Shown one piece after another: positions 256 to 64,000 of a stretch of 64,000 nt of DNA; the stretch's first letter is position 1; each line of letters begins with the position of its first letter. Origin of the DNA: Clostridiales bacterium. GTDB taxonomy: Bacteria > Bacillota > Clostridia > Christensenellales > UBA3700. Under the pieces are notes generated by a model. That model had not been told where the DNA came from. It was given only the letters and a program-made list of their open reading frames with translations, and ran no database searches. Where the stretch lies: assembly GCA_014799575.1 (NCBI GenBank), contig JAAVHS010000015.1, positions 143,570 to 207,569 of the forward strand, given 5' to 3'. Position numbers and translations under genes: made by a program.

Positions 256-277
256 AACCGTTACTCCTTTGTTTTAT

Positions 278-306: not shown

Positions 307-331
307 GGTTAATTCTATTGCCCGTTAATAC

Positions 332-724: not shown

Positions 725-743
725 ATCTCTGTCCTCCTATAAA

Positions 744-780
744 TACAAAAGGGTTTGATTGCTTTTGCAAATCAAACCCT
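744..780 (-). terminator. Rho-independent terminator after the 1935-aa gene
   Basis: Minus-strand RNA AGGGUUUGAUUUGC-AAAA-GCAAUCAAACCCU (13-bp stem with one bulge) followed by UUUGUAUUU. Confidence 0.6.
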
Positions 781-911
781 CTATGTTACCCCACGGATTA
801 AATGATTTTATATTTAACTGTATTGATTATAACATCTTAATCCTTGTTTGTAAAGATGTACAGAGAACATTTTTATTAAAAACAATGCTTTCACATAGCA
901 AATCATTTCCA

Positions 912-6719: not shown

Positions 6720-6733
6720 TTTCCCCTCTATCT

Positions 6734-7252: not shown

Positions 7253-7260
7253 TCTTTCAC

Positions 7261-8017: not shown

Positions 8018-8048
8018 TAGCCTTTCCTCCTTTCTAATAATTAGCTAT

Positions 8049-27146: not shown

Positions 27147-28360
27147 TCGGCTTCTATCTCTCCTTCCTCAACTAATCTTTCATAATTTGCTTTTGCTAAC
27201 CGACGTCTATACTCTTCAAAGCAATTTATAGCTTCATCATCAACGTCTGCGACTATCCGCAATGATTTTCCTAACAGATAGCTCCTGTATTTTTTTGCTA
27301 TATGTTTTTTTGCTAATTCAGTCTTACATCTCTTTACCTCCCTATCGTCTTTTTGTTTTATATGCAATGCGAACTTTATGACTTTGTCGCCAAGTCGCCT
27401 GTATATATCCGTAATGTATTTTTCACTTATTAGATACTTGCTCGGATTATCTATTTTTTGCTCTTCACAAATACGCCTTCTATTAGCGTCAAATCTCGCT
27501 AAATCCGTGCAAAACGTGTCAAAATCAATCTTCAAGTTTGGATTGTTCTTGATAATGAAATTGACAATATCATTTACTTGCGGACGAAGTTTGTCCATAT
27601 TTTTACTTCCGTAACTGACACGGCCGTCTAATGGCAATGCTCGATATAATGCTAGCAATCTTTTCTTCAATTCTCTTTCATAGTCATTTAGTCCTTGCAA
27701 ATGAAACAGTGTATCGTGAACGGACTCGGTTAGGTTACGACGGCTACGCTTTAAGTCAAAGTTGGCATCTGTCAATCGTTCTTCAATCTTCATGCGGAAC
27801 ATACTAAGTTCCTCTTGTCCTATCGTGCCGTATCGATAACGTTTCGTTGCCCCATTTTCCTTAGTGAATAGCGGTTCTTTCTCGAAGAAACCTAAATGTA
27901 TGTGTTGGTTATCTGTGTTTTCGTGTAACCCTGCATACCAAATTACATTGTCAGTTGAGATTCCTATACTGCGAAAGAAATTCGGCAATTCAGCGTTCAA
28001 TAATTCCAAGGCATCTTTATAGGATGTCATATACTTGCCACCGAAATCTTCTGTAAAACTAATTACAGCGTGCCATATATTGCTGTCAGTTGACCGAAGC
28101 ATAGCTCGTAAATCTCGTATCGCTCTTTTTGTGAGTAATCCATTTGCTCCAAATAATCCGCTACTCTTTTCTTCGTTGCCTGCATATCCGAGAAAATCCC
28201 CCTCATCTATTCCCTCATTGACATATTTGAGTATGTCATAATGTTGCCGACAAGCATAAAACTGCCGTTCCGCAATATATCTCGGTTTCATAGAAAAACG
28301 ATTCATTGTGTCATTATTCGGAGCATACCCCATAATTACTACGACATTGGGATTGCCCAT
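27143..28360 (-). CDS. Relaxase (MobA/VirD2-type HUH nuclease)
   Basis: 405 aa. Histidine-triad-like HENTDNQHIHLGF. Lies directly upstream of, and overlaps, the T4CP gene. Confidence 0.7.
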   Translation of the reverse strand: MGNPNVVVIMGYAPNNDTMNRFSMKPRYIAERQFYACRQHYDILKYVNEGIDEGDFLGYAGNEEKSSGLFGANGLLTKRAIRDLRAMLRSTDSNIWHAVISFTEDFGGKYMTSYKDALELLNAELPNFFRSIGISTDNVIWYAGLHENTDNQHIHLGFFEKEPLFTKENGATKRYRYGTIGQEELSMFRMKIEERLTDANFDLKRSRRNLTESVHDTLFHLQGLNDYERELKKRLLALYRALPLDGRVSYGSKNMDKLRPQVNDIVNFIIKNNPNLKIDFDTFCTDLARFDANRRRICEEQKIDNPSKYLISEKYITDIYRRLGDKVIKFALHIKQKDDREVKRCKTELAKKHIAKKYRSYLLGKSLRIVADVDDEAINCFEEYRRRLAKANYERLVEEGEIEAE

Positions 28361-47400: not shown

Positions 47401-49978
47401 CCGTATATTCCGTTTCTTCTCCGTCTCCAATTACGTATCCCCATACGATAGCCGACGCATCTACCTTGGCTTTTGCTATGCTCCAAGAAAGCGTAGTCGG
47501 GAAGTTGGGCGCATTGTAATTCTTGGTATCGTAAGAGAACGTAATACGCGCGGTATAGTCGTTGCCCGCATTGGTTTCTTCGTGACCTATTACGCTTATG
47601 CTCAAGCCGTTTATACTGTCCTTACCGACAAGCGTCAACGTATGCGCCGTATTATCATACGTCATCGGATCAATTTCATTGTTGCTTGCATCCAACCACT
47701 TGTTTTGGTCGAAATCATATGTAGCCGCAACGTTGCCGTGTGTATACTGCCATTTGAGTCCGCTCACGTCAAAGTCGGCTTTGATTATCTCGAAATTAAA
47801 TTCCAAACATCCGCTGTCAATATAGTTATCCTCTGCTTTATCGCTATTAAGTACGACTTCTATTCTGTACTTACCCACTTCCGTAGGTTCGCCAATAATA
47901 GGACTAGTAGCTCCGTCCTTGTAGTAATGAAGCGTGATATCTTGCGCTCCTACTCCGCCATCGGCTTGAAGTATCTCTATACTAGGCGAGTATGCGCTAC
48001 CTGTGTATGACAACTGTTTGTCTTGGATATTCTCGCCATTCCATTGCAATTCCAACTTGACAACGAATTTATCCTTACCAATGACGAACGTGTATTCTGC
48101 CGTATCGCCTGTCGATAACTTATAATTCCCGCTATACGCTGTCTTGAGCGTAGCCACTACCCTATACGTGGTCTCTTCTGTTACTTCATCAGGACTCGGC
48201 AACGTGGTAACTTGTTCGCTGCCTTTATAATAAGTATAGTCTACCATGTTCGCTTGTGGAAGATTGTTAAGCGTAGGCCACGTGTATTGAGTCACGTTTC
48301 CGTTGTTGTCATTCTTCCAACTTACGCTGATTGTCGCTTGGATTATCTTCCAACTTACAGAAAATTCGAAGTCATCGCCTATATAAGAAGTCTTATCACT
48401 CGCAATAGGTACGATATAATTATTCACGTAATCTGACGTTATACTAAACGTAACGGTCGTGGTATAGTCGCCCACGGGCGTTTTACTTCTGTCGCCTGTA
48501 TACGTCGCTGTCAAACCTGCGGGCAATACGCCTTGCAATTCCATGCTTTGCGGAGATCCGTTGTATTCTAATTGTTTTACGCTAGGCCAACTCAATCCCG
48601 TCAAATTGTACTTCGCCTTATCTATGCGATAAGACAAAGTATATTGCTTGGTGTAAGTCTCGTAAGTGTTGTCTAAATTCGTTAAATGAACTGTGACTGA
48701 ATATAGCGACGTACTAGCGTTTGTTGCGCTAATATTTCCGCTATATCCGCCCGTAGTACCACTCTTGGTCGTGTCTATCTTGACGCCGTGCGAAGCAAGT
48801 ACGCTGTCGTCTATGCTAAACGTATACGGACTGCCTGTGTATACAACTGAATAATTCGTAGGATAGCCTATTGAAATACTATTGCACAACCAATCAATAT
48901 CTGTGTCTTGTAGCGTAATACCTACTCCGCTGACGTGGAATACCAACGTCTTTGGCGTAGACAACGTGTAATTGCCGTTGGCATTACTACTGCTTGCGTT
49001 AGCCTTTTCGACGTATATCGTATAGTCGCCTTTGGCAATGCCCGTCGGCATTGTTATAGTAGTTGTCTTACCGCTTACTACTTTAATGGTATTGATTTCA
49101 TCGTACTTTGTGCCTGTACCTATACTGTTATTTATATAATATATCTTTAATTCTATTGTATCATTAGTATATGAATCTTCCGTTATCGTTACGGTAGGTT
49201 GAACTCCGTAATTCCAAGTATTGTTGTTTGCATCGCAACTTATTGTGATGCCCAACGCTTTTGGATTTATTGTCACAGGCAATGAAAAACTATCCGTTCC
49301 ACCGCTCGACCACACCATTGAGCTTTTCTCGACTAGCGAAAACGTGACGTAATAAGTACCCGCGTCTTTGACTTTCAATTTACCGTCTTTCAACTCTAAT
49401 ACGCCATCTTTTAACTCTAATATATTATTGTCTTTTTTGATATTATCGATTTTAACGTCATCGCTCAATCCGTTGATGGTAAATTCTTGCAGTTCGCCGT
49501 TATACGACAAAGTATTCGACCCTATGGTCGGCTTTGTCACGGGTTTTGCGGTAATCGAAAGGTCAGGCGTTGCTTTGCAAGTACCTTTCAATTCATAGTT
49601 ATTGTTTGGGTTCATCGTCGCTGTGACGGTATACGTACCTACCGCAGTGGGATATTGGGTATATGTTTCGCCCGTTAAATTGTTTTTGTAAGTAATAGTA
49701 AACGTCGGCGCTCGATCTCCTGTATCGCTGTCGTATATCTTATTGGCGTCAGGGTCGTTGGCAACGACTATAGGCGTGACGGTATAACCTCCGCCGCTCG
49801 ACGTAGGTTTTATCTCACATTCTATAGGTTTTTTCTTGATTGTAAATGTAAATTTTCGAGTTGTAGCGTCTTCACCTTTGCTTACATCGGGGTCGCCTTT
49901 GAACGTAAATTCCGGGTCTTCTTGTAATTTCTGGTCAGAAATCTTCGCCGTCACTGTATAAGTGCCGGCGTCTTTCAT
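44468..49978 (-). CDS. MBG-repeat surface protein, distal part of the DGR target. The frame stays open upstream to 50209.
   Basis: 1836 aa as listed. Repeated AGTY(T/Y)VT...YNG MBG-type units, a TM helix (LWQLIASFISIILIIVFL plus a second helix), and a cytoplasmic tail with EKVVEVPV repeats. No signal peptide and no clear RBS at the listed ATG. Confidence 0.7.
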   Translation of the reverse strand: MKDAGTYTVTAKISDQKLQEDPEFTFKGDPDVSKGEDATTRKFTFTIKKKPIECEIKPTSSGGGYTVTPIVVANDPDANKIYDSDTGDRAPTFTITYKNNLTGETYTQYPTAVGTYTVTATMNPNNNYELKGTCKATPDLSITAKPVTKPTIGSNTLSYNGELQEFTINGLSDDVKIDNIKKDNNILELKDGVLELKDGKLKVKDAGTYYVTFSLVEKSSMVWSSGGTDSFSLPVTINPKALGITISCDANNNTWNYGVQPTVTITEDSYTNDTIELKIYYINNSIGTGTKYDEINTIKVVSGKTTTITMPTGIAKGDYTIYVEKANASSSNANGNYTLSTPKTLVFHVSGVGITLQDTDIDWLCNSISIGYPTNYSVVYTGSPYTFSIDDSVLASHGVKIDTTKSGTTGGYSGNISATNASTSLYSVTVHLTNLDNTYETYTKQYTLSYRIDKAKYNLTGLSWPSVKQLEYNGSPQSMELQGVLPAGLTATYTGDRSKTPVGDYTTTVTFSITSDYVNNYIVPIASDKTSYIGDDFEFSVSWKIIQATISVSWKNDNNGNVTQYTWPTLNNLPQANMVDYTYYKGSEQVTTLPSPDEVTEETTYRVVATLKTAYSGNYKLSTGDTAEYTFVIGKDKFVVKLELQWNGENIQDKQLSYTGSAYSPSIEILQADGGVGAQDITLHYYKDGATSPIIGEPTEVGKYRIEVVLNSDKAEDNYIDSGCLEFNFEIIKADFDVSGLKWQYTHGNVAATYDFDQNKWLDASNNEIDPMTYDNTAHTLTLVGKDSINGLSISVIGHEETNAGNDYTARITFSYDTKNYNAPNFPTTLSWSIAKAKVDASAIVWGYVIGDGEETEYTGALPYTRASGREASYTVGLINVPEILKDYISYNSGERTQSKVGNYSIQYALADLGSNYETVVMPSSLQTRLNWSISVKILPTPVFDKSWTVFDGEVHDFAQMFGITEEGWENYMTITITKDGSAFDGLDGDAYKAIKAGEYTVVFDLLDYDNIDWQDGVWPAASTLVRVKAYEINLEWQGNNTNATAVLDDWVKSYVDYRYKDSDGNILANGIRDMETGVPYFKELFAKDGYEDDIKIYGEPKTVLRPGSSASIVKPVFDTNKKITYDGNPHTIEEFLRSGDEMPTGVKFEILDGNLTDAGEYTIRISLEDEEIFCWDDEDGTTDSYTVTVKIEKATITQNRLNWTTDEESGLPKLSVRGNSDIEFTYTYYDEDGYELTLAEIADGVEVAKVVAKLNNSNYAMIDASNSVVEEVTYAPNEDDNKDPNSGDQSGENPPNNNEGGGLFGGSLEEILEKLKEIPLWQLIASFISIILIIVFLSKTAKYDGERKKFNKKASKLESMYAGAFLGVAMSIWTAIACVLIVMAVVSFVMMLIAKSRRNKAEEEYEDHLDEYNRNKADFDEKKRDENMRMMLMGMMGGNAGGAGAQGGFAYQQGLTADDMRGLISETVTAMLPGMQQMLPQQASTNDEMVQKLIDQNEKLMKQLAEKPSETANNDVFVQKLMEQNAQNEERLRKLNEQTERRVEKLMQQLVEMPAEREVASANISEETLEKLVNKLQPISSNISDETILKVVTQSGQNDETIKQMLKNQELLMAKILELSANQNNQPQVVEKVVEVPVEKVVEKVVEVPVEKIVEKEVVKEVPIEVEKVVEKVVEVPVEKVVEKQVIKEVKVAAAPKPKKEVAPRLTLDEAYATLSKEQKKYFDGLRDYALSKDKCKEKKSTYFVVFGPNTANPLLKLTIKKDTVVALYKMEDEYMKDIRRNATSDGSKIKVKETELIVADAQAFGTAKDMIDLREDQIERYADYLKEQKAMNRR
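44905..45092 (-). repeat. In-frame tandem repeat encoding (V/I)VEKVVEVPVEK units
   Basis: Protein VVEKVVEVPVEKVVEKVVEVPVEKIVEKEVVKEVPIEVEKVVEKVVEVPVEKVVEKQV. The corresponding DNA units recur with small changes. Confidence 0.7.
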
Positions 49979-50090
49979 ATCCGACGGATATGAAAGAGTT
50001 ATGACGTCATTGTTAAACCACTTTTTCTGCTCTGCCGATATATTTGCGATTGTCTGAATGTCGCCGTTATATACGGATTCTACATCCGTC

Positions 50091-50128
50091 GGGCGCTCAG
50101 CGCCCAGAGAGCCAGCGCGAGCGCTGGC
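50091..50128. promoter_or_regulatory. Two GC-rich hairpins just 3' of the VR (DGR target-recognition-like element)
   Basis: gggcgc-tca-gcgccc (50091-50105). gccagcg-cgag-cgctggc (50111-50128). Confidence 0.6.
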
Positions 50129-50149
50129 AGATTTTAGATTAAGATGAAA

Positions 50150-50207
50150 CGCGGGCCGAACCGCGGCCGGCGGCGGTAAACTAACAAGCCGAACGCAGCC
50201 ACGAATA
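50150..50207 (-). repeat. DGR variable repeat (VR), collapsed form
   Basis: 58 nt identical to 52674-52731. Flanked on its 3' side (coding sense) by TTTCATCTTAATC, where the TRs have CTTCACTC(A/G)CTTG (an IMH versus IMH*-like difference). Confidence 0.75.
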
Positions 50208-51269
50208 GCTTACGCTATTCCCGGAAACGGTTGTTGATGTAGATCTTTGATTTGTCGATGTTTTCCACAAGCCATTGGCTGTGTCAGCATATCCTACTTC
50301 TGCAAAACTAGGCAACCATAGCCTATCGTTTCCCCATGCTAAATAAGAATCTGTATTTACCGTAGTACACGTGTAATAAATACGCGGACTGTTAGCCGTC
50401 GTATACTGATACATATTCTCCGTTATCGGCGCTCCCAAACAATCATTGTTTGCGTCATAAGAATATGACGAATGTAGAGCTTGTTTCTTTGCGCTCTCTT
50501 TTTCATTATTCTTTTGATAAGGCGTATTGTTAGGTATTTCTATGAAATCTGTCAAACTTCCCTTCATTCCGGGAGTTGTATTGGGCACTGTGAATTTTGC
50601 GTAAGTACTGCTTACTTGCTGCTGAATGTTTTCCGTTGCGCTTGTATTACTTCTTGCAAAATAACCGCCGTTGTTCAATACCGCTGTCGCCATTGCGCTT
50701 GTGCCGTAAGAGTTGGACGGATAAGTATTCACGCTGTTTGTACTATTGGTAGGATTCCATGCTATATTTACCCCTGTTGCCATAGCATTGGTACTCACGT
50801 TGTAATAATTAAGTGATATTGCGTCCGCTTGCCATAAAGTCAATATCGGATCGCCATTCGCATTCTGCGATAGATACGTCGCCGTCCACGGTTTTCCGTC
50901 TATCATTACAACTACGTCAGCTCCACCATTGTTAGTGCGGAAGTCTGCCGACGTCTTTTCCGTACTTCCAAGACCTTCAAGTGTAGCCGCTGTAGGATTG
51001 GTCACTCCTGATATCTTACTGACGAGTTTCCAAAATATCTCGCCGTTGAATACGTTACCCTTGCCTGTGGTATCATCCGCATATCCATCAAGCAACATCT
51101 CAGTCGTCGTATTATCATCTGCTTTCAATGCCGTATAATTACCTTGAAAGGCATTGGCTACTTCGCTACCATTAAATAATATCCCCACACAACTAAACAC
51201 TATTGCCAATACCAATATTGACACCAACGCTGTTGTTATTCTCTTATTTCTGCTTTTTTCATTATTCAT
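50181..51269 (-). CDS. Proximal part of the DGR target: signal peptide plus a WLRS-type (C-type-lectin/DUF6273-like) domain truncated in the VR
   Basis: 362 aa. TM/signal ITTALVSILVLAIVFSCVGILF. C-terminus ..RLWLPSFAEVGYAD..SVSYSWLRSAC-stop. Confidence 0.75.
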   Translation of the reverse strand: MNNEKSRNKRITTALVSILVLAIVFSCVGILFNGSEVANAFQGNYTALKADDNTTTEMLLDGYADDTTGKGNVFNGEIFWKLVSKISGVTNPTAATLEGLGSTEKTSADFRTNNGGADVVVMIDGKPWTATYLSQNANGDPILTLWQADAISLNYYNVSTNAMATGVNIAWNPTNSTNSVNTYPSNSYGTSAMATAVLNNGGYFARSNTSATENIQQQVSSTYAKFTVPNTTPGMKGSLTDFIEIPNNTPYQKNNEKESAKKQALHSSYSYDANNDCLGAPITENMYQYTTANSPRIYYTCTTVNTDSYLAWGNDRLWLPSFAEVGYADTANGLWKTSTNQRSTSTTVSGNSVSYSWLRSAC

Positions 51270-51550
51270 ACGATTTCTTCCTTTCTTGTCTTACTCTCTA
51301 ACAACTTGTCAATTGCGACTAGTTTAATGTCACATTTACTTCGTTTTTCGACATAATGACTCAATATAGAATTTTCGATACCTATACTTAATAATCATAC
51401 GCTATTAAAAAAAATTTTGCAAGGCTTTTTATAAAATTTATGGAATATGGGCGATTATTTATGATATTTTTACTAAATATTGATATATTTTCGCTTTCCT
51501 TTTACCTTTGCTCATTTTTATCATTATTTATGTCAATAACTTAAATGCTA

Positions 51551-51579
51551 TTGACATACAATATATTATATGATATAAT
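51551..51579 (+). promoter_or_regulatory. Consensus SigA promoter for the only plus-strand gene
   Basis: TTGACA (51551-51556), 17 nt, TATAAT (51574-51579). AAGGAAA RBS precedes the ATG at 51607. Confidence 0.7.
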
Positions 51580-51606
51580 CAACTTACCGAATAAGGAAAA
51601 TTTATT

Positions 51607-52071
51607 ATGTTTGTAAAAATCACATCTGTTGCTACTCTTCCCGATTATATCCTTCTCGTAGGATTTGTGTCAGGCGAATATAAGCAATTCGACTTAAAAC
51701 CGCTTATAGAAAAATATGCGCCGTTCAAATCTTTGGTAGAAGTGGAAGGCCTTTATGAACAAGTGAAAATCGACGTAGGCGGTTATGGTCTTGTCTGGAA
51801 CGACGATCTCGATATCGCCGCAGATGGAATTTATGACAAAGGTATTTCTTGCGCTCCTCCGAGCGACATAGAAACTTACAGACAAAAACTTGTCGAAGAG
51901 TTTGTCAAAGCGCGTAAGAACGCAGGTCTTTCTCAAAAACAACTCGAAATTCTTTCGGGGATTCCCCAACCATGTATCGCTCGAACGGAAAAAGGGTTAA
52001 CAGATCCGCAACTTACAACTTTACTAAAACTACTTTCCCCATTAGGTTTGACTCTTTCAATTACAAAATAA
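51607..52071 (+). CDS. DUF2442 domain / XRE-type HTH fusion protein
   Basis: 154 aa. N-terminal pattern V..LPDYILLVGFVSGEYKQFDL..DVGGYGLVWNDDLDIAADGIY fits DUF2442. C-terminal AGLSQKQLEILSGIPQPCIARTEKG is an HTH. Confidence 0.65.
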   Translation: MFVKITSVATLPDYILLVGFVSGEYKQFDLKPLIEKYAPFKSLVEVEGLYEQVKIDVGGYGLVWNDDLDIAADGIYDKGISCAPPSDIETYRQKLVEEFVKARKNAGLSQKQLEILSGIPQPCIARTEKGLTDPQLTTLLKLLSPLGLTLSITK

Positions 52072-52081
52072 GTTTATCCCC

Positions 52082-52271
52082 GAAGTGAGCCTTGCCGCCG
52101 TAGCAATAAAAGCATTAACCGTCATTACAGGACAAGGCTCTGTTTCGTCTTTGCCACTAACATTGTCGACAAAAACAGGACAAAAGTTTCCTTCATCTCT
52201 ATCTTATCTGTCCGCTCGACCGTGATCGATACGGATACGGGAATTCCTTGCCTAATAGCAAGTGAGTGAAG
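52082..52271 (-). ncRNA. TR1-flanking conserved segment (DGR spacer-like RNA, copy A)
   Basis: Blocks shared with 52483-52673: atccgtat.gat, agcggacaga, gagatgaagg, aaacagagccttgtcct, atgacgg, ggctcac (coding sense). The complementary gagcct(t)g / c(a)aggctc segments are kept in both copies. Confidence 0.45.
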
Positions 52272-52388
52272 CGCGGGCCGAACCGCGTTGGTATTATTGA
52301 CATTATTGTTATTCATAGAAGTGCCGGCGGCGGCTAGTCTGTATGAATTGTTGTAATTGTTATAATTAGCCGAACGCAGCCACGAATA
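52272..52388 (-). repeat. DGR template repeat TR1 (full length, adenine-rich)
   Basis: Coding sense encodes YSWLRSA-NYNNYNNSYRLAAAGTSMNNNNVNNTN-AVRPA. 12 of the 27 central codons are AAY. Confidence 0.8.
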
Positions 52389-52482
52389 ATACGGCAACCA
52401 GATACAAAAACTTCTACCCTGCGCCCATTATAGCATATCACTTACTGAAATATCAACTTTTTCTATAACATAAAGTAAAAAT

Positions 52483-52673
52483 GTGAGCCTCGCCATTTTT
52501 ACGCTAAAAGCAGTCATTGTTTTCCACCGTCATCGTAGGACAAGGCTCTGTTTTGTCTCTCCCGCCTTTGCGGTCAAGACTAGACGAAATCCCCTTCATC
52601 TCATATCTTCTGTCCGCTTGACCTTAATCAATACGGATGCTGGAAATACTTATCTTTTGACAAGCGAGTGAAG
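52483..52673 (-). ncRNA. TR2-flanking conserved segment (DGR spacer-like RNA, copy B)
   Basis: Homologous in blocks to 52082-52271. Directly follows TR2. Confidence 0.45.
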
Positions 52674-52731
52674 CGCGGGCCGAACCGCGGCCGGCGGCGG
52701 TAAACTAACAAGCCGAACGCAGCCACGAATA
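52674..52731 (-). repeat. DGR template repeat TR2 (deletion derivative, identical to the VR)
   Basis: Equals TR1 with a clean 35-nt deletion and 34 nt replaced by 10 nt. Carries the TR-type 3' flank CTTCACTCGCTTG. Confidence 0.7.
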
Positions 52732-52822
52732 CATACAAACCTCAAACAAAAGATTTCGCCGTGTGTATTATATTGTATATAATAATTTACTATCACTTCA
52801 ATAGATATAGTAATTTCTATGT

Positions 52823-54466
52823 CTACTGTCTGGCTTTTGATTTCATCCAACCGCTCAACATCTTCTTGACTTCGCAAACTTGCTTACCTATAAGCATGGC
52901 TTGTTTGTTTGTAATGGCCTGCTTAACCTTTGCGGTCTCAGCATAAAAGTCCAATAGACACAAGTTGACCATTGCTTGCTTTTGGTACTCGCTACGCTTT
53001 TCATCTCTTTCAAAATTTGCGTAGTACAAACTCTCTATGACTGACGTCGATGCGTCCATAAGCCTTGATACAATACTCCATCTCAATGTCTTTGGCGACT
53101 TTTCCGTGATAACAAAAATATACTCGCTCAATTTCTTTGCGCCTGTAAACACTTGCATTTCTCTGTCTTTGGGTTGATTGAAGTCAGTTATCTTAAAAGG
53201 CTTTTTCTCCCCTTCTTGCGTTTGGTTTTCAATTGTGTTTTCTTTGGTTTCTCCCAAAAGTTCATTCTTTATTTCTTGGTCTATGTCGTTCATCATCTCT
53301 TTCAAATACTCCTTTTGTCCTTCATACGTAGATAATTTTTTCTCTTCGGCAAATGCTTTTTCTTTCTCTTCGATCGGCTCTAATTTCCGCTCGATTTCTT
53401 TTGCAAACTTTATACTCTTTGCGTGTTTCAAATGACCGTGAAATGCTGCGCACGTTTGCCTTATTCGTTCAATATTTATCAGTCCCTCATAGTATCCTTT
53501 CTTTATTAGTTTCACTCGCCATCGGAATCTTCGCTTGGTTTGCTTCTTTATCGTCTTGACTATTTCCCCTTCAGGTGTAACAACAAATCTGTACCCAAGA
53601 TAAGTCACTCCGTTCTTTATCGGAAATATCTGTGTCTTGGAATTTAATTTCAAGCCTAGCCGCTTTACCAAATCTTCTATCCGTTCTTTGACGTACTTTA
53701 TGTATTCAAGGTTTTCGTGCATAAGTACGAAGTCATCCATATACCTTGAATATACCTTTATTCTCAACTGCTCTTTTATTAATCTATCCACGGGGTCAAG
53801 ATAAAACATTCCAAAAATTTGACTTGTCTGATTTCCAATCGGTATACCCCTTCCCGTCTCTTCGCCTTTGCCTAATGGCTCTATACCGTACTTAGTCAGA
53901 TAATCGGGACTTGTGCTGTATCCGTCAATTACGCCTTCTATCATCTTTCGTATGCGCTCGTCCACTATGCGAGTACAAACTACCGACTTTAACTTGTCAT
54001 GCGGTATGCTTGCAAAAAATTTGAGTACGTCGCACTTGAGAAAATACCCATTGACTCCATTCTTATCTATGTGTCTACGCAACATTTTTTCAAATCTATC
54101 CAATGCAAAATGACTGCCTTTGCCCTTTTGGCAAACACAATTATCATAAATTACCCTATTTGCAAAATATGGCATAAGCATATTATCGCATAAGACGTGC
54201 TGTATCACTCTGTCGCAATACCGCATATTTTGAATCTCTCGACGCTTGGGCTCAAATACTAAAAAGGTGTTATAGCCACCAAACTTAAATGTACCGTTTA
54301 TTAATTTCTTATGTAATTCGTAAATATTTCCTAATGCGGAAATTTCAAATTTTACTATGGGTTTCTTACTTCTACGAGAAGCCCTGCTCTTCAAGTGAGC
54401 TGCATAAAGATTTTCTATACTGAACAACTCTTCGTAAGTGTTCGTTATCAATTTATTTGTTTTCAA
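52823..54466 (-). CDS. DGR reverse transcriptase with C-terminal Avd-like domain
   Basis: 547 aa, TTG start with GGAG 5 nt upstream. RT motifs FEPKRREI, CQKGKGSHFA, GIPIGNQTSQ (the DGR-specific (I/L)GxxxSQ) and SRYMDDFVLM. C-terminal ~115 aa: SPKTLRWSIVSRL..ESLYYAN..EVKKMLSGWMKS, resembling the Avd four-helix bundle. Confidence 0.85.
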   Translation of the reverse strand: MKTNKLITNTYEELFSIENLYAAHLKSRASRRSKKPIVKFEISALGNIYELHKKLINGTFKFGGYNTFLVFEPKRREIQNMRYCDRVIQHVLCDNMLMPYFANRVIYDNCVCQKGKGSHFALDRFEKMLRRHIDKNGVNGYFLKCDVLKFFASIPHDKLKSVVCTRIVDERIRKMIEGVIDGYSTSPDYLTKYGIEPLGKGEETGRGIPIGNQTSQIFGMFYLDPVDRLIKEQLRIKVYSRYMDDFVLMHENLEYIKYVKERIEDLVKRLGLKLNSKTQIFPIKNGVTYLGYRFVVTPEGEIVKTIKKQTKRRFRWRVKLIKKGYYEGLINIERIRQTCAAFHGHLKHAKSIKFAKEIERKLEPIEEKEKAFAEEKKLSTYEGQKEYLKEMMNDIDQEIKNELLGETKENTIENQTQEGEKKPFKITDFNQPKDREMQVFTGAKKLSEYIFVITEKSPKTLRWSIVSRLMDASTSVIESLYYANFERDEKRSEYQKQAMVNLCLLDFYAETAKVKQAITNKQAMLIGKQVCEVKKMLSGWMKSKARQ

Positions 54467-54529
54467 GCAGCTCCGCCTATCTCTTCCGTGTATTCTTGAG
54501 ATATAGCAATGCCTTTCTCAATGCTACTG

Positions 54530-56234: not shown

Positions 56235-56468
56235 TTATTTTTCAATTTCGCTCAAAATATTTTCAAATATAGGAAGCCTTGCACCTAAAACAGTTTTGAT
56301 TGTTGCGGCTAACCCACCAACTTTGTATACTCTCTTTCGATTTTCGGGATCTGCCATAAGTTCTTTTACAAACTCAGTTAATTCCTCGTATGTAATTAGT
56401 TTAGATATTTGATCATCAATTTTTATTTTCAGTGCATTTGCAATTTCTCTAACATTGTTATAAGTCAT
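56235..56468 (-). CDS. Hypothetical small protein
   Basis: 77 aa with AGGAGG RBS and an upstream promoter. Confidence 0.5.
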   Translation of the reverse strand: MTYNNVREIANALKIKIDDQISKLITYEELTEFVKELMADPENRKRVYKVGGLAATIKTVLGARLPIFENILSEIEK

Positions 56469-56496
56469 ATAGCACCTCCTTTTTCTCTTTTACTAT

Positions 56497-56524
56497 ATTA
56501 TATCATATTCTCGAAAAAAGTCAA
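56497..56524 (-). promoter_or_regulatory. Candidate promoter for the 77-aa gene
   Basis: Minus strand TTGACT, 16 nt, TATAAT with an extended -10 TG. Confidence 0.5.
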
Positions 56525-56849
56525 TAATTTGATGATATTATTTTTTTTATATTTATCAATATTCTTGTATTTTACATACTTCCTGTACAATTTACATTTT
56601 TTCGGTAAATAACAAGTAAATTATTCCTTACCAAATAATGATTATTAACTTTAAATCAAAACAAATTCATTTATTTTTGATACTTTTTAAACTAAACAAA
56701 CTCATACAACTTTCCTCTGAATTTATGCTGAAATAGTATTCTGTTTAAGTAAATAATTCGCTCTATTCCTTATACTATGTTTCTATAAGTTCAATCAAGG
56801 CGAATCTGTGTTTAATTGTACCATAAAACCACTTGAAAAAAGTCGCCAA

Positions 56850-56922
56850 CCATAGGGTTGCGATACATACCTATAGATACCATTAGGTTGGAGATACTCT
56901 CTCGTACACATCTCGTACACAT
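56850..56922. repeat. Short direct repeats in the non-coding end region
   Basis: ccatagggttgcgatac (56850) and ccattaggttggagatac (56880). Tandem ctcgtacacat x2 (56901-56922). Further aaattagca x2 near 57010 and 57030. Confidence 0.6.
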
Positions 56923-57045
56923 TTCAGTCAAAAACAGATAAAAACGGAAAAAAACAAATTGAACCAAATTGAAATGATTTTTCTTGGTATGTGTCGATTT
57001 TAGCCATACAAATTAGCATTTATTGAACTAAATTAGCACATATAA

Positions 57046-57129
57046 AACTGCGATTTTTCCGTGGGTAACAACCCAATGGTAGGCGCTTCCGTATCTTGCG
57101 CAGTTGCAGTAGAAGAAGCTTTGAAGTAA
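57046..57129 (+). pseudogene. Orphan 3'-terminal fragment of an unidentified plus-strand gene (possible integration-target remnant)
   Basis: 27 codons NCDFSVGNNPMVGASVSCAVAVEEALK-stop preceded by an in-frame TAA. Followed by a plus-strand terminator. No upstream coding sequence. Confidence 0.4.
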
Positions 57130-57175
57130 TTCACCAACACAAAATATTGTGTTTTACTTAAATAAATAACAACAT

Positions 57176-57207
57176 ATAGCGGTCTTGAAAGAGACCGCTA
57201 TTTTTTA
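57176..57207 (+). terminator. Plus-strand rho-independent terminator
   Basis: atagcggtct-tgaaag-agaccgctat (10-bp stem) followed by T5-6. Confidence 0.7.
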
Positions 57208-57239
57208 TTAATTCGCATAATTTCGTATTGCGTTCTCAC

Positions 57240-57292
57240 CTCGTCCACATGCGTTAAAAAATGTGGACGAGAGTTGTATTTCCCGTCCACAT
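57240..57292 (-). terminator. Integrase-gene terminator with alternative pairing (three copies of cgtccacat/atgtggacg)
   Basis: atgtggacg (57261-57269) pairs with cgtccacat (57284-57292), followed by U6 on the minus strand. It can also pair with ctcgtccacat (57240-57250). Confidence 0.6.
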
Positions 57293-57315
57293 GAGTAATG
57301 TTTTCTTAATATGTG

Positions 57316-58617
57316 TTAACTAAAAACTCTATTAACAACACTCCTGCCCTGTTGTCTTATATCGTCTGTCACATGCTCATAAACTTCAAACGTAGTGCTC
57401 AATTTTGAGTGTCCTAATCTGCATTGGATATACTTCTGCGTAGCGCCACTTTCTGCAAGAATACTTGCATGCGTATGTCTCAATGAATGATAATCAAATT
57501 CTTCGCAAATATCTTTCTTTATTATCTTTGTCGCATGTTGCATAGTTCTTGGACTAATAAAAGTACCGTCCTCTCTTATACAAACAAAATGAATAAGATA
57601 ATCTGTTTCTTGAGTTCGAATTCTATTTTGAATATCATTGTACATATTAAATTTATTATCAAATACTAAAGGTCTATCAGAATAATAGTTGTGATAATAT
57701 ATCCCATAATACGCTTTTGCTATCTCTTGTCTTTTCTTTTCTACCGACAGTATTTTAGCTAATCCATCACTAATCTCTATGGCGCGATAAGAATTATATT
57801 TTGGCGCTGAAAAATACCAATAACCATTGCCACATTCTGATGAGCCGTTGTTAGCAATTTTGTCATATATTGTTCTTTCTTTATCTTGATACCATTGAAC
57901 TTGTCTGTTTATATAAATAACCTTGTTGACTAAATCTATATCTTCCCAACACAGTCCAAAAGTTTCCCCCAAACGTAAACCGCACTCATAGCCAAGTTTT
58001 AAAGGAATATAGCTCGAGCTTCTTTCTGTAAAGCGTTCAAATATTTTTTGCATTACTTCACCTTTAATAAAATGATGCGGAGCCGAACGTGTTGGCACTT
58101 GGGGCACTCTATTCTTAGGTATTTTCAATCTAACTGCCGGAGTGCAAACTATGTAGTGATTGTCCATTGCATAATTCATACTTTTAGTAAGCATTCCTTT
58201 AAATGAAACTAGCGAATTTCTAGAATAACCGAAGTCATACATCTCGACTAAAAAGGCTTGCAGTACTTCTCTCGTTAAAGATCTTAGCCTATACGAACCC
58301 AATTTAGGCTTGAATACGTTGTCTATAACTTTCTTATAGTGCGTCAACGTCGTTTCTTTCAAGTCAACCATACAATCTTTTTCGAACCAAATATCAAAAA
58401 AATCCGCTACTGAAATCTGATCCTTTGCAATATGTCCATAGTTCTCGTACTGTCTCATCGCTTCCCTTCCTGCTTTTCGCGCTTCAGTAACAGTTTTAAA
58501 TCCGCTCTTTGATTTCCATTTTCTTTTGCCATCAATACTCGCAATCTCAAAGCGGTATTCATACACTGCGCCATTTGTTGAAAAACGTTTTCTGATACAT
58601 AAATTAATCATATACAA
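57316..58617 (-). CDS. Tyrosine recombinase / integrase
   Basis: 433 aa. N-terminal arm-binding-like segment, then HSLRHTHAS (HxxR) and LGHSKLSTTFEVYEHV (catalytic Tyr). Confidence 0.85.
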   Translation of the reverse strand: MYMINLCIRKRFSTNGAVYEYRFEIASIDGKRKWKSKSGFKTVTEARKAGREAMRQYENYGHIAKDQISVADFFDIWFEKDCMVDLKETTLTHYKKVIDNVFKPKLGSYRLRSLTREVLQAFLVEMYDFGYSRNSLVSFKGMLTKSMNYAMDNHYIVCTPAVRLKIPKNRVPQVPTRSAPHHFIKGEVMQKIFERFTERSSSYIPLKLGYECGLRLGETFGLCWEDIDLVNKVIYINRQVQWYQDKERTIYDKIANNGSSECGNGYWYFSAPKYNSYRAIEISDGLAKILSVEKKRQEIAKAYYGIYYHNYYSDRPLVFDNKFNMYNDIQNRIRTQETDYLIHFVCIREDGTFISPRTMQHATKIIKKDICEEFDYHSLRHTHASILAESGATQKYIQCRLGHSKLSTTFEVYEHVTDDIRQQGRSVVNRVFS

Positions 58618-58699: not shown

Positions 58700-59602
58700 T
58701 TACATTTCCAAATCTTTCTTTTTTCTACCACTAACTTTATCATTTGATTCAGTGTTTGTTGCTCCGCTTCCAGAATATATCGAAAGCCATATTTTCATAC
58801 TCTCAAGTTCGCTTTCAGCAAGCAACTTTGCCATACCTTCCGTCTTGCTCTCAGGGCGTGTGCTATACTTTTCTTTATCCCTATAAGAACTTATTGCAGC
58901 ATAATACCTATCGCGTTCTTCATAACGCACGTCGACAGGCAAAAGTCCCAACAAAATCATCTCATAGATTAAAAGCAATCTTCCCGTTCTTCCATTGCCG
59001 TCAACAAATGGATGTATGTTTTCAAACTCAATATGATGTTTCGCAAGATTGTGGAACAACTCAACCCAGTTAAACTGTCCTTTCTCCGCAAGTTCGCAGT
59101 TGCGTTTACAATCGGCTTGCAGTTCTTCCACATACGCTTTCATCTTTTCCGGTACTTGCGACGGCGAACAAGGCGTATAAACTATTCTTGTTAGATTGCC
59201 TATATAATTCTGTATTGTTCTATATTGTCCTGCACCGTCATCACCACGCAAAACAAAACTGTGAACTTTCTTTATAAATTCTTCAGTAATCGGCTTCTTT
59301 TCCTTTACCGATTCATAGAGGAAATCAAAGGCCTGTTTATATCCAACTATGTCTTCGCTCTCACGTAAAGAGTGCGCGCCAGTAACAATTCCTTTTTCAA
59401 TAAGCAACTTGGTTTCGTCAAACGTAAAGGTATTACCCTCTATAGCATTAGAGTTATGGCTAGCGCTAATAGAAAACTCATTATTAAAATACATAAGTTC
59501 GCTTGAAGTAAGCGGACGGACTTCTTTCATACGCGCATAGCAATTCTCTATCTCGCTTATGATTTCTATGTATTTTTGTTGTTCTTCCATTTTTTTAGAC
59601 AT
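58700..59602 (-). CDS. Fic family protein with N-terminal inhibitory motif
   Basis: Start set at the second ATG (MSKKMEEQQ; AGGAG 8 nt upstream). Fic motif HPFVDGNGRTGR. Inhibitory helix motif SNAIEGN. Confidence 0.9.
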   Translation of the reverse strand: MSKKMEEQQKYIEIISEIENCYARMKEVRPLTSSELMYFNNEFSISASHNSNAIEGNTFTFDETKLLIEKGIVTGAHSLRESEDIVGYKQAFDFLYESVKEKKPITEEFIKKVHSFVLRGDDGAGQYRTIQNYIGNLTRIVYTPCSPSQVPEKMKAYVEELQADCKRNCELAEKGQFNWVELFHNLAKHHIEFENIHPFVDGNGRTGRLLLIYEMILLGLLPVDVRYEERDRYYAAISSYRDKEKYSTRPESKTEGMAKLLAESELESMKIWLSIYSGSGATNTESNDKVSGRKKKDLEM

Positions 59603-59690
59603 AGCCATTGCTCCTTTTTTACATTATAATCATATTTATATAAATAGTCAAGGTTAATTCAATCGCCTAACTGTACTTATTTTATTACAG
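59349..59690. repeat. Right copy of the fic 5'-end plus promoter module (partner at 1-345)
   Basis: See the left-copy entry. Homology runs from codon ~87 through the promoter to ~40 nt beyond the -35. Confidence 0.8.
59623..59651 (-). promoter_or_regulatory. SigA-type promoter of the right fic gene
   Basis: Minus strand TTGACT, 17 nt, TATAAT. Confidence 0.6.
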
Positions 59691-59820
59691 AAATTGAATA
59701 AACGTAGAGTAATTAACTTTCAACTTTTATCTTTGGTAAAGTCAATATACGCTAAATACATATTTCAGACTTAATAGCCTGAAAATATTCAGTTTTAAAT
59801 AGTATACATTGCTTCTTAAT

Positions 59821-60935
59821 TTACGATTCTAGTTCAATTGCCAAACCAGTTATATAAGAAAGAATATTATTGTACCCATCTTCAAGCACACTTAATCCAT
59901 CTGCTAACACTCTCAAATTAAGCCACAATAATATTAATTTAACTATTTCATTAGCATTAGTATCTATTGCATCATCAGCATAATCCCCATGCACAATACC
60001 ATTTCTGAAACAAATTCCTTCCGTCTTTACATTTGCAAATATTTTTTTATAATAATTATTAATTTTTTCCCAACTATGCTGTTCCCATTCAATACTTATT
60101 TTATCTAATAAATCTTTTATCTTTTTTGCTCTTTCATGACCTTTTCTATATTCTTTTTCTTGGTAAAATAGCCTTCAAACGCATCAGCGCATCTTTTATG
60201 CTCACTTTCCAACAATGCAAAAATATTTCTTGCAGCAGCTCGATAGCACCCTTCATTTAGAAGATTAATTGATATTATGATATCTTCTCCTTTTCTGCCC
60301 ATAATTGGACTTGGATTTGGCATATTTACATATCTATCGAGCATTACTCTTAAATTTAAACTATCGTTAAACAAGTATGTGTCAATCAAAAAACTTTCTG
60401 TTAACTCATCATCAAGTATATCTATATCAGGTGTTTCAAGAAAATACAATAAAACTCCATTATCTGCGTATTGGTCCATTCTTTCAATATATTCTTTTGT
60501 AAAAAATCTCTTTCTATCATTTTCTATCTGCTTATTTAATTTATATACCGCATTAAAATATTCGTAATTTGCCTTTCCTAACTCGTCTTGCAGTGCTTTA
60601 TCTTCTCTGAATTCTGGTATCTCTTTCATTCGTTCTGAAATATACACATATTCTTCTGATTTGTTAATGAACACATTTAACAACCATCTCATAGCTTCGA
60701 CAGAAGTTTCTTTTTGGCTAAACTTACTTTCAATATCAGGATATTTTTCTTTTAATTTTGAAAGCCCTAATATAATTAAATTTTTAGATTTCTCGTCCAA
60801 CTCATCACGTATTTCTTGCTTTTCATGTGCAATCTTGCTCAACCGTATCTGTTCCTTAATAGCTTTCTTTATTTCTTCGGTTAACATTTTTTGTTGTTTA
60901 ATTAAAAAATTAAAATATTTTTCTTCTGTCAACAT
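59821..60935 (-). pseudogene. HEPN-motif (Abi-like) gene interrupted by a frameshift at an A6 run
   Basis: The 272-aa ORF ends ..MKEQKR-stop at 60117. A 99-codon ORF with no start codon continues in the -1 frame to 59821 and contains ICFRNGIVHGDY (Rx4H). An A7 run instead of A6 (plus-strand T run 60122-60127) would fuse them into ~370 aa. Confidence 0.6.
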
Positions 60936-60991
60936 ATTTGCTCCATATTAATTTAATAACATTTTACTGAATAAAATTTTTTCTTGATATA

Positions 60992-63028
60992 TTACTCTTT
61001 GGGGGATAATAAATCTGATGGAATTGAAATTTCTATTGCATTGGGAAATCTATGTTTGAATTGTTCAACCTCGCTATTAGTGAGAACTCGAACACACGCA
61101 AGATTTTTCTTAGCACGAGAACATGCGACATATATTAACTTTTGAGAGTTTATTTTTTTCTCAACATTCTTTTCGCCTTCTTTATAAAGCAAAGAAAAGT
61201 CATATTGATTCCAAAAATATTCTTCCATTACAACAATAACAGAAGGTATACTGGTACCTTTAGTTTTGTGCATCGTAATATAATTTGTTTCCTCATCAAG
61301 ATACTTTGCATAATTTAATACCTCTGAAAACTTGAGATTCGACGAAAATAAATCTGTTATGAAGCGTTCTTTTTCCCACTGCGATAAATAAAAATCAAAT
61401 TCTTCTTTGGATGAAACAATATTACTATCCTTGATTCGGCTATATGTATTTAATCCACTTAAATAATTAGTTTTAAACTTTTGATATAAATCATCGTGTA
61501 TTAGTTGCTTCAAATAATTGTCATTCCGTGCAGATATGTTTCTATAAGTTTCAGTTCTTTTAATAATTTGTTGTTTAATAGCATTCTCCACTATGTCTAT
61601 AATAGATGAATTTGAATCATTTATTATACCATGTATTATATCATGTAATCTCTTCTTGTCAGCAATAGAATGTATAACATATCCACCTTTTTTTGCAAGT
61701 CTAATTACCTCATTATAATTCCCCTTTAAATATAAACGGCATAAGTCGCTTACATCCAGTGCTTGTATAGAACGCAAATAGCTTTCTATCCTGTCACTCA
61801 CATCAAGATATCTTTCATCAAAAACTTTATAAAGCTGTTTGAAGTCATTTTTCTCAGCGATTGCCTTATTTGTAAGAATTAATACTTTGGAATTACCCAC
61901 ATTTTTTTGCGCCTCGGCAATTAAATAATTAATAAGTTTTTGAAATTTTCCTTTTTCATCGGGGTCACTTTTTGATGTCGGTTTACTTTCTACTACAGAA
62001 TATAGAATCTTTACCACACCATGACGATCCGCTTCATTTTCATATCTTCCATCGCTTAGTTTTTTTAATGCAACATCTTGAGAAATACTGTCGATACGCA
62101 AAGAATTAATTAATTCGACGACTTCATATGAGCATCTATAATTGTCGACTTTAGCAATTTCATCAAGCATTCCAGTTTCTATATAGGCATCCAAACTTCC
62201 AATTCCATCATCATAAATAGCTTGCATACTATCTCCAAATAGCCCAATTGTCAAATTGTATTCTGAAGACAACTGCAACATATCGCTCATAATTTCTGCT
62301 CTAGTATCCTGATACTCATCGATAAAAATATAGTCATACTTATCTGAAATAATTTTACCCAATATGGGATACTCTTTTACCATGTAATGAAAAATAGCAA
62401 GAAGTCCATCGTGGCCATAACTCAAATCACCAAAACTATCAAATTTCGTCTCATTGTAAATTATTGAAGAATAATCTTTTTCATTAATGATGTCTAAGAT
62501 TTTATTATTGAGAGTTTTGATTTTTTCATTAAGAACTTGATTGTAATTTTCAGGAGATTTATCATAGTCTCTTTTATTAACAACTTTGTCGCAATTCTCT
62601 TTACAAATAGAGTATAGCTTACCAGAATACTTGCTATATATTTTTTTGTATTTTTCGTACTCATCTTTTTTATATTCCGTTTCAGAGATATCTTCAGTTT
62701 GCACACCATGTCTAATTGATGGGACTAAAAACAATCCTGGAATTACTGATTTTATATTTTTCTTATAATTTCCAATCAATCCATATAAAAACGAGTGAAT
62801 TGTACTGATGTAGTAGCCATCACCTACTCTATTCACAATTTCTTCAACTGCGGCATTTGTATGTGTAATACAAACAACTTTGGCCTGGGGTTGAGATTGC
62901 TTAATATATAAAAGCAGCTCTTTTAGTGATTCAGTTTTTCCACTTCCAGCACCACCTTGAAGAACAAAACTTCTATGCAAATCAATACACTTTTTACATT
63001 GGTCTAATGCACTTGTTTCTGTAACCAT
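60992..63028 (-). CDS. UvrD/PcrA-family SF1 helicase (GajB-like)
   Basis: Start set at MVTETS (AGGAGG 6 nt upstream), giving 678 aa. GGAGSGKT, FIDEYQDT, GDSMQAIY, ITMHKTKGTSIP, YVACSRAKKNL. Confidence 0.85.
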   Translation of the reverse strand: MVTETSALDQCKKCIDLHRSFVLQGGAGSGKTESLKELLLYIKQSQPQAKVVCITHTNAAVEEIVNRVGDGYYISTIHSFLYGLIGNYKKNIKSVIPGLFLVPSIRHGVQTEDISETEYKKDEYEKYKKIYSKYSGKLYSICKENCDKVVNKRDYDKSPENYNQVLNEKIKTLNNKILDIINEKDYSSIIYNETKFDSFGDLSYGHDGLLAIFHYMVKEYPILGKIISDKYDYIFIDEYQDTRAEIMSDMLQLSSEYNLTIGLFGDSMQAIYDDGIGSLDAYIETGMLDEIAKVDNYRCSYEVVELINSLRIDSISQDVALKKLSDGRYENEADRHGVVKILYSVVESKPTSKSDPDEKGKFQKLINYLIAEAQKNVGNSKVLILTNKAIAEKNDFKQLYKVFDERYLDVSDRIESYLRSIQALDVSDLCRLYLKGNYNEVIRLAKKGGYVIHSIADKKRLHDIIHGIINDSNSSIIDIVENAIKQQIIKRTETYRNISARNDNYLKQLIHDDLYQKFKTNYLSGLNTYSRIKDSNIVSSKEEFDFYLSQWEKERFITDLFSSNLKFSEVLNYAKYLDEETNYITMHKTKGTSIPSVIVVMEEYFWNQYDFSLLYKEGEKNVEKKINSQKLIYVACSRAKKNLACVRVLTNSEVEQFKHRFPNAIEISIPSDLLSPKE

Positions 63029-64000
63029 TCGAGTCCCTCCTTGATATATGCTGGAGTATTCCAATTTAGTCCATTTGCATGCGTGAGGAATAAAATAGTA
63101 GATGCAAAGTCAGACTTTTTACTAATAACTCGCGTTGTCAGTTTATACATGTCAGAACAAGTTTCAAATTCTTCTTTATTTTTCAATCCTTCTATTGATG
63201 AAAGATTTGATTTGATTTGCGATAAATTTACATTGATAAATGCATCTTCAAAACTTCTTGCGTAGTACGATTTTTCCTCCCCTTGATAAGCGATATGGAC
63301 ATTGGGGCTTATGCAATTAGCTTTATGCTTTAACACATCATTAAACCAACTGCTGTACGAATCATCCCCCACTTTACAATTTGGTTCTCCTAAGTAATAC
63401 ATTATTGTAGCATTGCTTGTTTTGCATACATTAGAATCATTTACCTCACATGATGAATACCAAACTCCCTTGTCTGTAGTTTCTTGCTTCACTGTATCAA
63501 TATCGGTAATTATTAGCGATGGTATTTTCAAAAACTCAAGAAAATGCCGAAACACTTTTGCATTAGCACCAGCACGAACAACCGTCACATTTTGAGCTGA
63601 TAGTGGAATATAAGTAGGTTTTAATGTAGGATCATTAGCAATTCTGGTCTCCTCTTCCTCAATCTTGACTGTATCAAATTGTGTAATGAAGTGTTGCAGT
63701 AAAATATCTTCTGATATACCTTCAATAAAAATTGCCTTATCTGCAAAAAACAGTTCTGACGATTCAATAGAAAGATACTGCTTTAAAAATTTAAACTCAT
63801 TCTGTTCACCAGAGTACATACTGCTTAAGTCTTTGTGAAAATTCTTAATCTCTATATTATAAAACCCCTCTGAATCTCTTATAGTGGACATATATCTAAT
63901 GTTCTCAAAAGGATGACTGGCTACAATATGGGAAGAGTGAGTTGTGATAATCGTCTGCATACCTGGAATACCACTAACGATTTCACTAATTTTTCTGGCA
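63004..64000 (-). CDS. OLD-family ATPase/Toprim nuclease (GajA-like), C-terminal part; gene continues beyond the window
   Basis: The frame stays open to the window edge. IITTHSSHI (ABC H-loop region), FIEGISEDILL (Toprim Glu), LIITDIDT (DxD). Confidence 0.75.
   Translation of the reverse strand, partial: ARKISEIVSGIPGMQTIITTHSSHIVASHPFENIRYMSTIRDSEGFYNIEIKNFHKDLSSMYSGEQNEFKFLKQYLSIESSELFFADKAIFIEGISEDILLQHFITQFDTVKIEEEETRIANDPTLKPTYIPLSAQNVTVVRAGANAKVFRHFLEFLKIPSLIITDIDTVKQETTDKGVWYSSCEVNDSNVCKTSNATIMYYLGEPNCKVGDDSYSSWFNDVLKHKANCISPNVHIAYQGEEKSYYARSFEDAFINVNLSQIKSNLSSIEGLKNKEEFETCSDMYKLTTRVISKKSDFASTILFLTHANGLNWNTPAYIKEGLEWLQKQVH

Follow-up and report, generated by a model that had tools for sequence, protein, structure and literature searches.

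Site-specific accretion in tandem, with internal att sites that are chimeric, is well documented for ICEs, IMEs and CIMEs; it includes decayed remnants as well as insertion into an att site that holds a gene end (PMC5704250). Examples are the ICESt1/ICESt3-CIME arrays at fda in Streptococcus thermophilus and the ICE-IME tandems at tRNA-Lys in S. agalactiae (PMC5704250). The locus described here was found in a 64-kb stretch of low-GC DNA, hereafter called the window, whose minus strand carries nearly all of its genes. It shares with the described arrays an intact target gene at one border, at least three direct att copies, related yet distinct tyrosine integrases of the same specificity, an apparently chimeric internal att site, decayed remnants without an integrase, and an element-borne replacement gene end. 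It differs from them in that the target is a gene of the GGGtGRT family (PF14057) in an uncultured gut Clostridia bacterium.

The lambda-type heterobivalent integrases, among them lambda Int and the Int proteins of Tn916 and Tn1549, act on att sites with an arm and core architecture, wherein attP carries the arm-type sites. Several features of the locus are of this kind. The integrase of a small island combines an N-terminal arm-binding domain with a catalytic domain, short direct and inverted repeats lie on both arms at 100-220 bp from a core, and the excisionase gene of the neighbouring element (element 1) adjoins its integrase gene. The differences are that the candidate arm motif is CGT(A/C)CACAT and that similarity of the island integrase to integrases of solved structure is confined to the catalytic C-terminus.

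A conjugative element of about 60 kb and a defence island of about 13 kb are inserted successively into the 3' end of one gene, and the region between them is very probably the internal, chimeric att site of this tandem array of integrative elements. An initial annotation of the window had proposed an att junction between two tandem elements, and this is borne out by the intact gene at the border, by two integrases that are 61% identical and share their specificity, and by three direct copies of the core repeat. The type of structure is well known; the target gene appears not to have been noted before.

The junction region and its target gene

The stretch of roughly 850 bp that was initially described as devoid of any substantial ORF measures 847 bp. 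All of its ORFs are 67 amino acids or shorter and none matches a Pfam family; its left neighbour is a 77-aa ORF at 56235-56468. Its parts are the following, with positions and strand in the window.

56469-57315, no strand: non-coding junction region, from the last gene of element 1 to the stop codon of the island integrase
56879-57061, plus: P arm, the right end of element 1 (taken as 56.72-57.06 kb in the order of the array), part of a repeated module (56879-57129)
56839-56860, plus: site A, which repeats the core in inverted orientation (GTCGCCAACCATAGGGTTG; reverse complement CAACCCTATGGTTGGCGAC) and precedes it by about 210 bp
56851-56901, plus: direct repeat pair CCAT(A/T)(G)GGTTG..GATAC, seen by direct reading, with copy 1 overlapping site A
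56900-56921, plus: tandem pair of TCTCGTACACA (CGTACACAT at 56903 and 56914), candidate arm-type sites about 150 bp upstream of the core
57010-57049, plus: two copies of AAATTAGCA, 20 nt apart, in a 20-nt repeat 15-50 bp left of the core
57062-57074, plus: common core TGGGTAACAACCC, 13 bp, the only block common to all three junctions
57061-57129, plus: orphan GGGtGRT 3' end, 22 codons and stop, the replacement gene end on the island P' arm
57176-57201, plus: intrinsic terminator, an 11-bp stem and T-run (-16.9 kcal/mol, z -6.4)
57240-57292, both strands: three CTCGTCCACAT-type sites, two direct and one inverted, candidate arm-type sites in the island P' arm
57261-57292, minus: intrinsic terminator of the integrase gene, with a T-run behind it (-20.2 kcal/mol, z -3.2)

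The three short direct-repeat pairs, the strong plus-strand terminator and the three copies of CGTCCACAT around the integrase terminator had all been recognized in the initial annotation, and all are real. A sequence similar to the first pair, CCATAGGATTACGATAC, is present in the P' arm of element 1 beside the intact gene. The AAATTAGCA pair is kept in both other copies of the P arm and has loosely similar counterparts in related loci, and we propose its two copies as candidate sites at which an accessory protein, for example the excisionase, would bind. A hairpin similar to the plus-strand terminator (AGCGGTCT..AGACCGCT) follows the gene end in both other junctions and in related genomes, and the copy in the window would stop the transcript of the target gene if the island were integrated directly behind that gene. 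The CGTCCACAT copies are located at 57242 (plus), 57261 (minus) and 57284 (plus), against 0.32 expected in the whole window, and three or more copies were found in 0 of 100 shuffles. Copies 2 and 3 pair to give the integrase terminator its stem, and thus part of their conservation here could be structural. The junction has no match in the plasmid collection. Scans of the window for tRNAs and Rfam families are likewise without a match, which rules out a tRNA or tmRNA att site.

The orphan gene end had been read as 27 in-frame codons without an upstream body. It is indeed a gene end, of which only 22 codons are homologous to the gene. The frame 57046-57129 encodes NCDFSVGNNPMVGASVSCAVAVEEALK followed by a stop codon, and a search of this fragment, which the initial annotation expected to reveal the target, finds the last 21 positions (307-327 of 327) of the Pfam family PF14057, GGGtGRT (E 3e-5). 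Homology to the gene begins at 57062, so that the five codons before the 22 gene-derived ones are P-arm sequence, and GTG takes the place of an ATG codon of the gene. The 22 amino acids match the C-terminus of the genome's own intact gene without exception, and the 69 nucleotides match the gene end of a related MAG (L006) at every position.

The intact gene was predicted to lie at an outer border, and it is found left of the window on the same strand as the orphan fragments, about 59.7 kb upstream. It encodes 333 amino acids and occupies positions -3609 to -2608 (plus strand) in window-equivalent coordinates, that is, coordinates carried past the window ends onto overlapping contigs. This border is taken from a Logan contig that overlaps window positions 1-9307 over 9307 nt with 0 mismatches and reaches 5.6 kb further left. 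The intact gene is followed by a terminator of similar type and by seven TGT(A/G)CAC(A/G) sites, and after these come an integrase from the family of the island enzyme, an excisionase and a Fic protein. The right side is taken from an ENA contig that extends beyond the window end, and the same locus is present in Logan contigs of another sample.

Direct copies of the core with a gene end are located at about -2680, 57062 and 69898 (window-equivalent), one per junction. The left and middle gene ends differ at 12 nucleotides, all of them synonymous and with 0 amino-acid changes, and the middle and right ones at 2 nucleotides, such that all three copies encode the same 22 residues. This is expected if each replacement gene end must keep the target protein intact. 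To the left of 57062 the sequence follows its left neighbour, which is the gene body in junction 1 and homologous P arms in junctions 2 and 3; in the three-way comparison, polymorphisms follow the right arm from 57075 onwards. Since the flanks switch at the shared block, the crossover most likely occurs within the 13-bp core.

Assemblies labelled Clostridia, Bacteroidales, Akkermansia, Treponema, Fibrobacteres and Planctomycetia (L006-L085) encode GGGtGRT proteins that share 78-96% identity. This conservation is unusually high for a protein of unknown function, and some of the MAG labels may be binning errors. The sole match in the phage collection is 'Bacteriophage sp.' MT835590.1 (L001), an unannotated sequence of 27 kb with a near-identical C-terminus; it was rejected as an attP because it holds an intact, 335-aa GGGtGRT gene. 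There is no integrase beside that gene, and the sequence may come from a bacterium or from the flank of a prophage and not from a phage. By their titles and abstract beginnings, none of the 13 papers with a mention of GGGtGRT in the searched library deals with integration, and the island integrase matches no family among the curated NCBIfam models. Judged by these titles, abstract beginnings and models, the target gene and the integrase clade appear to be undescribed.

The two elements and their cargo

The genes that identify the two elements are encoded on the minus strand.

1-57061, minus: body and right end of element 1, which begins at the GGGtGRT gene, about 2.7 kb outside the window on the left
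15218-17836, minus: VirB4-like ATPase of element 1 (Pfam TraG P-loop/DUF87)
24885-27146, minus: coupling protein of element 1 (Pfam T4SS-DNA_transf, TraG-D_C)
27143-28360, minus: MobL relaxase of element 1 (Pfam MobL)
57316-58611, minus: island tyrosine integrase, 431 aa, start codon ATG at 58611 (Pfam Arm-DNA-bind_4, Phage_int_SAM_3, Phage_integrase)
58700-59608, minus: island Fic protein, SoFic-like (Pfam; PADLOC SoFic, E 7e-35)
60117-60935, minus: island protein without assigned function (Pfam search)
60992-63028, minus: GajB, a UvrD-like helicase (PADLOC, E 6e-247)
63004 to beyond the window end, minus: GajA, an OLD/TOPRIM ATPase (PADLOC, E 4e-186)

The coupling protein, the MobL relaxase and the VirB4-like ATPase indicate that element 1 is an integrative conjugative element, and its integrase lies at one end. 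This integrase (433 aa, minus strand) is encoded left of the window. It is adjoined by a 70-aa excisionase with matches to HTH_17 and TIGR01764 'excise', and by a paralogue of the island Fic protein. Element 1 also encodes a primase and a DarB-like protein, whose gene opens the window.

Near the right end of the conjugative element there is a cassette that resembles a diversity-generating retroelement (49500-54500), with a reverse transcriptase on the minus strand (52823-54466) that is fused to a bAvd-like domain. Two pairs of repeats accompany it. The copies of the 81-nt pair at 52207-52287 and 52609-52689 share 81% identity, and the mismatches cluster in one of them; the 63-nt pair at 50145-50207 and 52669-52731 is 98% identical, and one of its copies overlaps the 3' end of a 362-aa ORF (50181-51269). 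This arrangement suggests a template repeat with two targets.

The island integrase has both parts of a heterobivalent enzyme. Its N-terminal arm-binding domain scores 25.8 bits against Arm-DNA-bind_4 (cut-off 22.3), its catalytic domain matches Phage_integrase with E 8e-20, and the residues of the R..HxxR..H..Y pattern (R213, H375, R378, H401 and Y411) are invariant in the alignment. The longest ORF would begin with TTG, but that version was discarded because it is not on record; the version with the ATG at 58611 is, as an exact protein in two samples. The exact proteins of the locus, including the last gene of element 1, occur in these two samples only, and both have the same arrangement.

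Directly behind the integrase, the island carries a SoFic-like Fic protein and a complete Gabija system with adjacent, overlapping gajA and gajB genes; this cargo spans 58700-64000 and, past the window end, L002 3593-5608. In this it resembles other defence islands on integrative elements, and the Gabija and SoFic systems themselves have no unusual trait; they are cargo and lie outside the junction. A Fic gene also occupies this position in two related loci (L086 and L006), and thus integrase and Fic seem to travel together. A Pfam search of the island genes recognized no excisionase.

Candidate arm-type motifs and related integrases

The repeats on the two sides of the core, CGTACACAT twice in the P arm and CGTCCACAT three times in the P' arm, differ by a single base (GTACAC versus GTCCAC) and are one motif family. 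There are five matches to CGTMCACAT in the 64-kb window, against 0.74 expected, and all of them fall within 390 bp (56903-57292). The relaxed pattern CGT[AC]CAC[AG]T has nine matches in a 78.6-kb composite of the locus, all in the middle and right junctions. A repeated motif that is distinct from the core sequence is therefore present on both sides of the core. The initial suggestion that such repeats are arm-type recombinase binding sites fits the arm-binding domain of the integrase, and it fits its relatives, in which 3-7 motif copies flank the core on both sides.

These relatives were collected with an alignment of four integrases, which retrieved 133 related loci from metagenome and viral contigs; scans of the same types of contig found no close relative of the island integrase. 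Depending on the locus, the repeated motif is CGTCCACA, AGTCCACA, TGTACACA, GTGGACAA or ATTCCACA. L086, whose integrase is nearest to that of the island (60% identity), has 5-6 copies of CGTCCACA in its P' arm. Across 43 distinct spacers between gene end and integrase, GTN(C/T)AC(A/G) occurs 242 times versus 13.7 in shuffles, a pattern that was picked after the data were seen and whose palindromic copies are counted twice.

Proximity to the GGGtGRT gene, or to an orphan 3' end of it, depends on the distance from the integrases of the window. Such a neighbour is present for 39 of the 40 assessable relatives with at least 44% identity to the window integrases, for 18/22 at 36-44% identity, and for 2/22 below 36%. 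The relatives show two layouts, with gene and integrase either tail to tail, as in the window, or in the same direction with the gene first. Loci with an orphan fragment have a common architecture. In it, 2-3 motifs in direct orientation precede the core by about 150 bp, and the core is followed by the fragment, a terminator, 4-6 motifs in both orientations and the integrase.

Because the junction has the same layout as the attP-like loci of viral and metagenome contigs, one could read it as the intact attP of a single non-integrated element, circular or phage-borne, whose orphan end is the replacement carried by attP and which forms no tandem array. However, P and P' motifs are alike in those attP-like loci, whereas in the window they are one base apart, as expected of a chimeric junction between two different elements. 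In addition, there are two different integrases, and the contigs extend leftwards to the intact target gene and rightwards to the third module and spo0A. We consider a single attP to be extremely unlikely. The exact pattern from P arm to core has no match in the viral contigs.

It emerges that a whole clade of tyrosine integrases with arm-binding domains is dedicated to one target, the 3' end of the GGGtGRT gene. Their carriers are conjugative elements, small defence islands and IMG/VR viral contigs, mostly in human-gut and other gut metagenome assemblies. The occupants behind the gene differ among strains whose GGGtGRT proteins are 99% identical: a conjugative element (L221), a P' arm remnant without an integrase (L222), and an arm with another motif, AGTTCAACAT (L223). 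The upstream side of the gene is variable as well and carries genes of the defence type, with GmrSD, an nSTAND NTPase and the TIR protein ThsB in these three strains, respectively, and a XerD-like recombinase in the genome of the window.

In sequence terms, the site now has three defining parts, namely the 13-bp core, the replacement gene end and CGT(A/C)CACAT as the motif of the arms. Many contigs of representative genomes stop within a few hundred bases of the GGGtGRT gene end, as is expected at a repeat, and in the independent sample the assembly breaks fall inside the repeated stretches. The site definition could therefore be used to delimit mobile elements and defence islands in MAGs and gut Clostridia assemblies, where contigs tend to break at this repeat. 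It leaves unchanged the understanding of how such elements work.

The right border and the inverted P arm

A second repeat copy had been anticipated at the outer border, and a third module with site A, P arm, core and gene end is located 12.8 kb downstream (window-equivalent 69655-69965; site A equivalent at 69673). It is 90% identical to positions 56879-57129 over 251 nt, the identity ends exactly at the stop codon, and the module has a similar terminator of its own. Its P arm, presumably that of the island, carries motifs of the GTACAC type, not the GTCCAC type. It shares 90% identity with its counterpart in element 1, and thus it may stem from an older related element instead of the island. 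Three more GTACAC-type, P'-like motifs are located to the right of the module and count against a cleanly bounded right end of the array. Further on there are a 71-aa gene, a histidine kinase, spo0A and a flavodiiron gene. These are host chromosome, and putatively the native flank of the array.

Between the island and the third module, just past the window end, there is an inverted, truncated copy of the P-arm module (window-equivalent 65119-65463; L002 3149-3493), of which positions 65301-65463 are 81% identical to the P arm of element 1. This relic is colinear with the third module after an in-silico inversion between site A and core (358 nt, 84%). It breaks off at an arm-type site and is joined there to distal P' arm sequence, of which a related strain (L222) has the intact arm. 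Most simply, site A and core recombined to invert the segment, and a deletion between arm-type sites came afterwards. This inverted copy, taken as 175 bp, was also considered as a terminal inverted repeat of the island; that reading was rejected, as the third direct module and the inversion alignment explain the copy as a rearranged junction relic. Behind the relic there are an IS200-like TnpA pseudogene (L002 about 2508-2900), a 510-aa GTPase-like protein and a 335-aa Hexapep protein, and no integrase. The Hexapep and GTPase-like proteins are encoded by an overlapping gene pair (about 66.7-69.2 kb window-equivalent; L004 3835-6371), and neither has a match in PADLOC. None of the spo0A, histidine kinase, 71-aa, GTPase and Hexapep genes is found beside GGGtGRT in 83 related loci.

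The claim of two tandem elements stands for the junction, but the array is larger than claimed, with a rearranged, integrase-less remnant between island and host. Given the relic and the integrase-less segment, the array consists of the conjugative element, the integrase-Fic-Gabija island, the relic with its remnant, the third module and host genes. On the plus strand, the proposed order begins with the intact gene and a core, after which element 1 would contribute its P' arm with integrase and excisionase, its body and its P arm. The core at 57062-57074 would then be followed by the island P' arm (gene end, terminator and the three CGTCCACAT copies), the integrase, and Fic with Gabija. The right part would comprise the junction relic, the integrase-less remnant, the third P arm/core/gene-end module and the host genes.

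By analogy with lambda-type integrases, the catalytic domain would cut and rejoin DNA within the 13-bp core, and the N-terminal domain would bind the CGT(A/C)CACAT repeats on both arms. Each element is proposed to bring a synonymous copy of the last 22 codons together with a terminator. A crossover inside the coding sequence would mean that the replacement gene end is carried in, and hence that the target gene is intact after insertion. If a second element of the same specificity then entered the att site of the first, an orphan gene end would be left between the two.

The state of the island also bears on whether the array still moves. It is possible, though on balance we think it unlikely, that recombination made the array and that the island, perhaps with the whole array, is now immobile, in which case the CGTCCACAT triple would matter as a terminator only. 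The island has no recognizable excisionase, its downstream end consists of the inverted truncated P arm, the IS200-like pseudogene and the integrase-less remnant, a single arrangement is seen in two samples, and CGTCCACAT copies 2 and 3 do make a good terminator. Against such a fossil junction, the integrase ORF is unbroken and lacks none of the catalytic residues, the 57-kb junction retains an intact core between two intact arms, and element 1 offers an excisionase in trans. Moreover, the motif family is kept in relatives where it has no terminator role, such as upstream of the integrase start in loci with the gene-then-integrase layout.

Another possibility raised by site A is that the P segment of about 220 bp, from site A (56847-56860) to the core (57069-57082), is a programmed invertible switch and not merely an att arm. 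Both intact modules have an inverted core-like sequence about 210 bp upstream of the core, and the third copy is the relic that aligns with the in-silico inversion. However, the inverted state is found in one relic only, which is itself truncated, and both intact modules share the same orientation. Site A is not kept in the P arms of more distant relatives, and no gene or promoter is evident whose expression would switch. A programmed switch is thus highly improbable, and the segment is best regarded as the P arm of an att site.

Inverted core copies of the form ACCAT-N-GGGTTG also occur at window-equivalent -2531 and in L086, L038, L222 and L223, and in many relatives such a copy is located directly after the terminator of the target gene in the P' arm. 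It is a long shot that these core-like sites, including site A, are functional secondary recombination sites. If they were, integrase-mediated inversion would flip the P arm of about 220 bp and thereby fix an element at its site or reshape tandem arrays, and the relic at 65.1-65.5 kb (window-equivalent) would be one fixed product of such an inversion.
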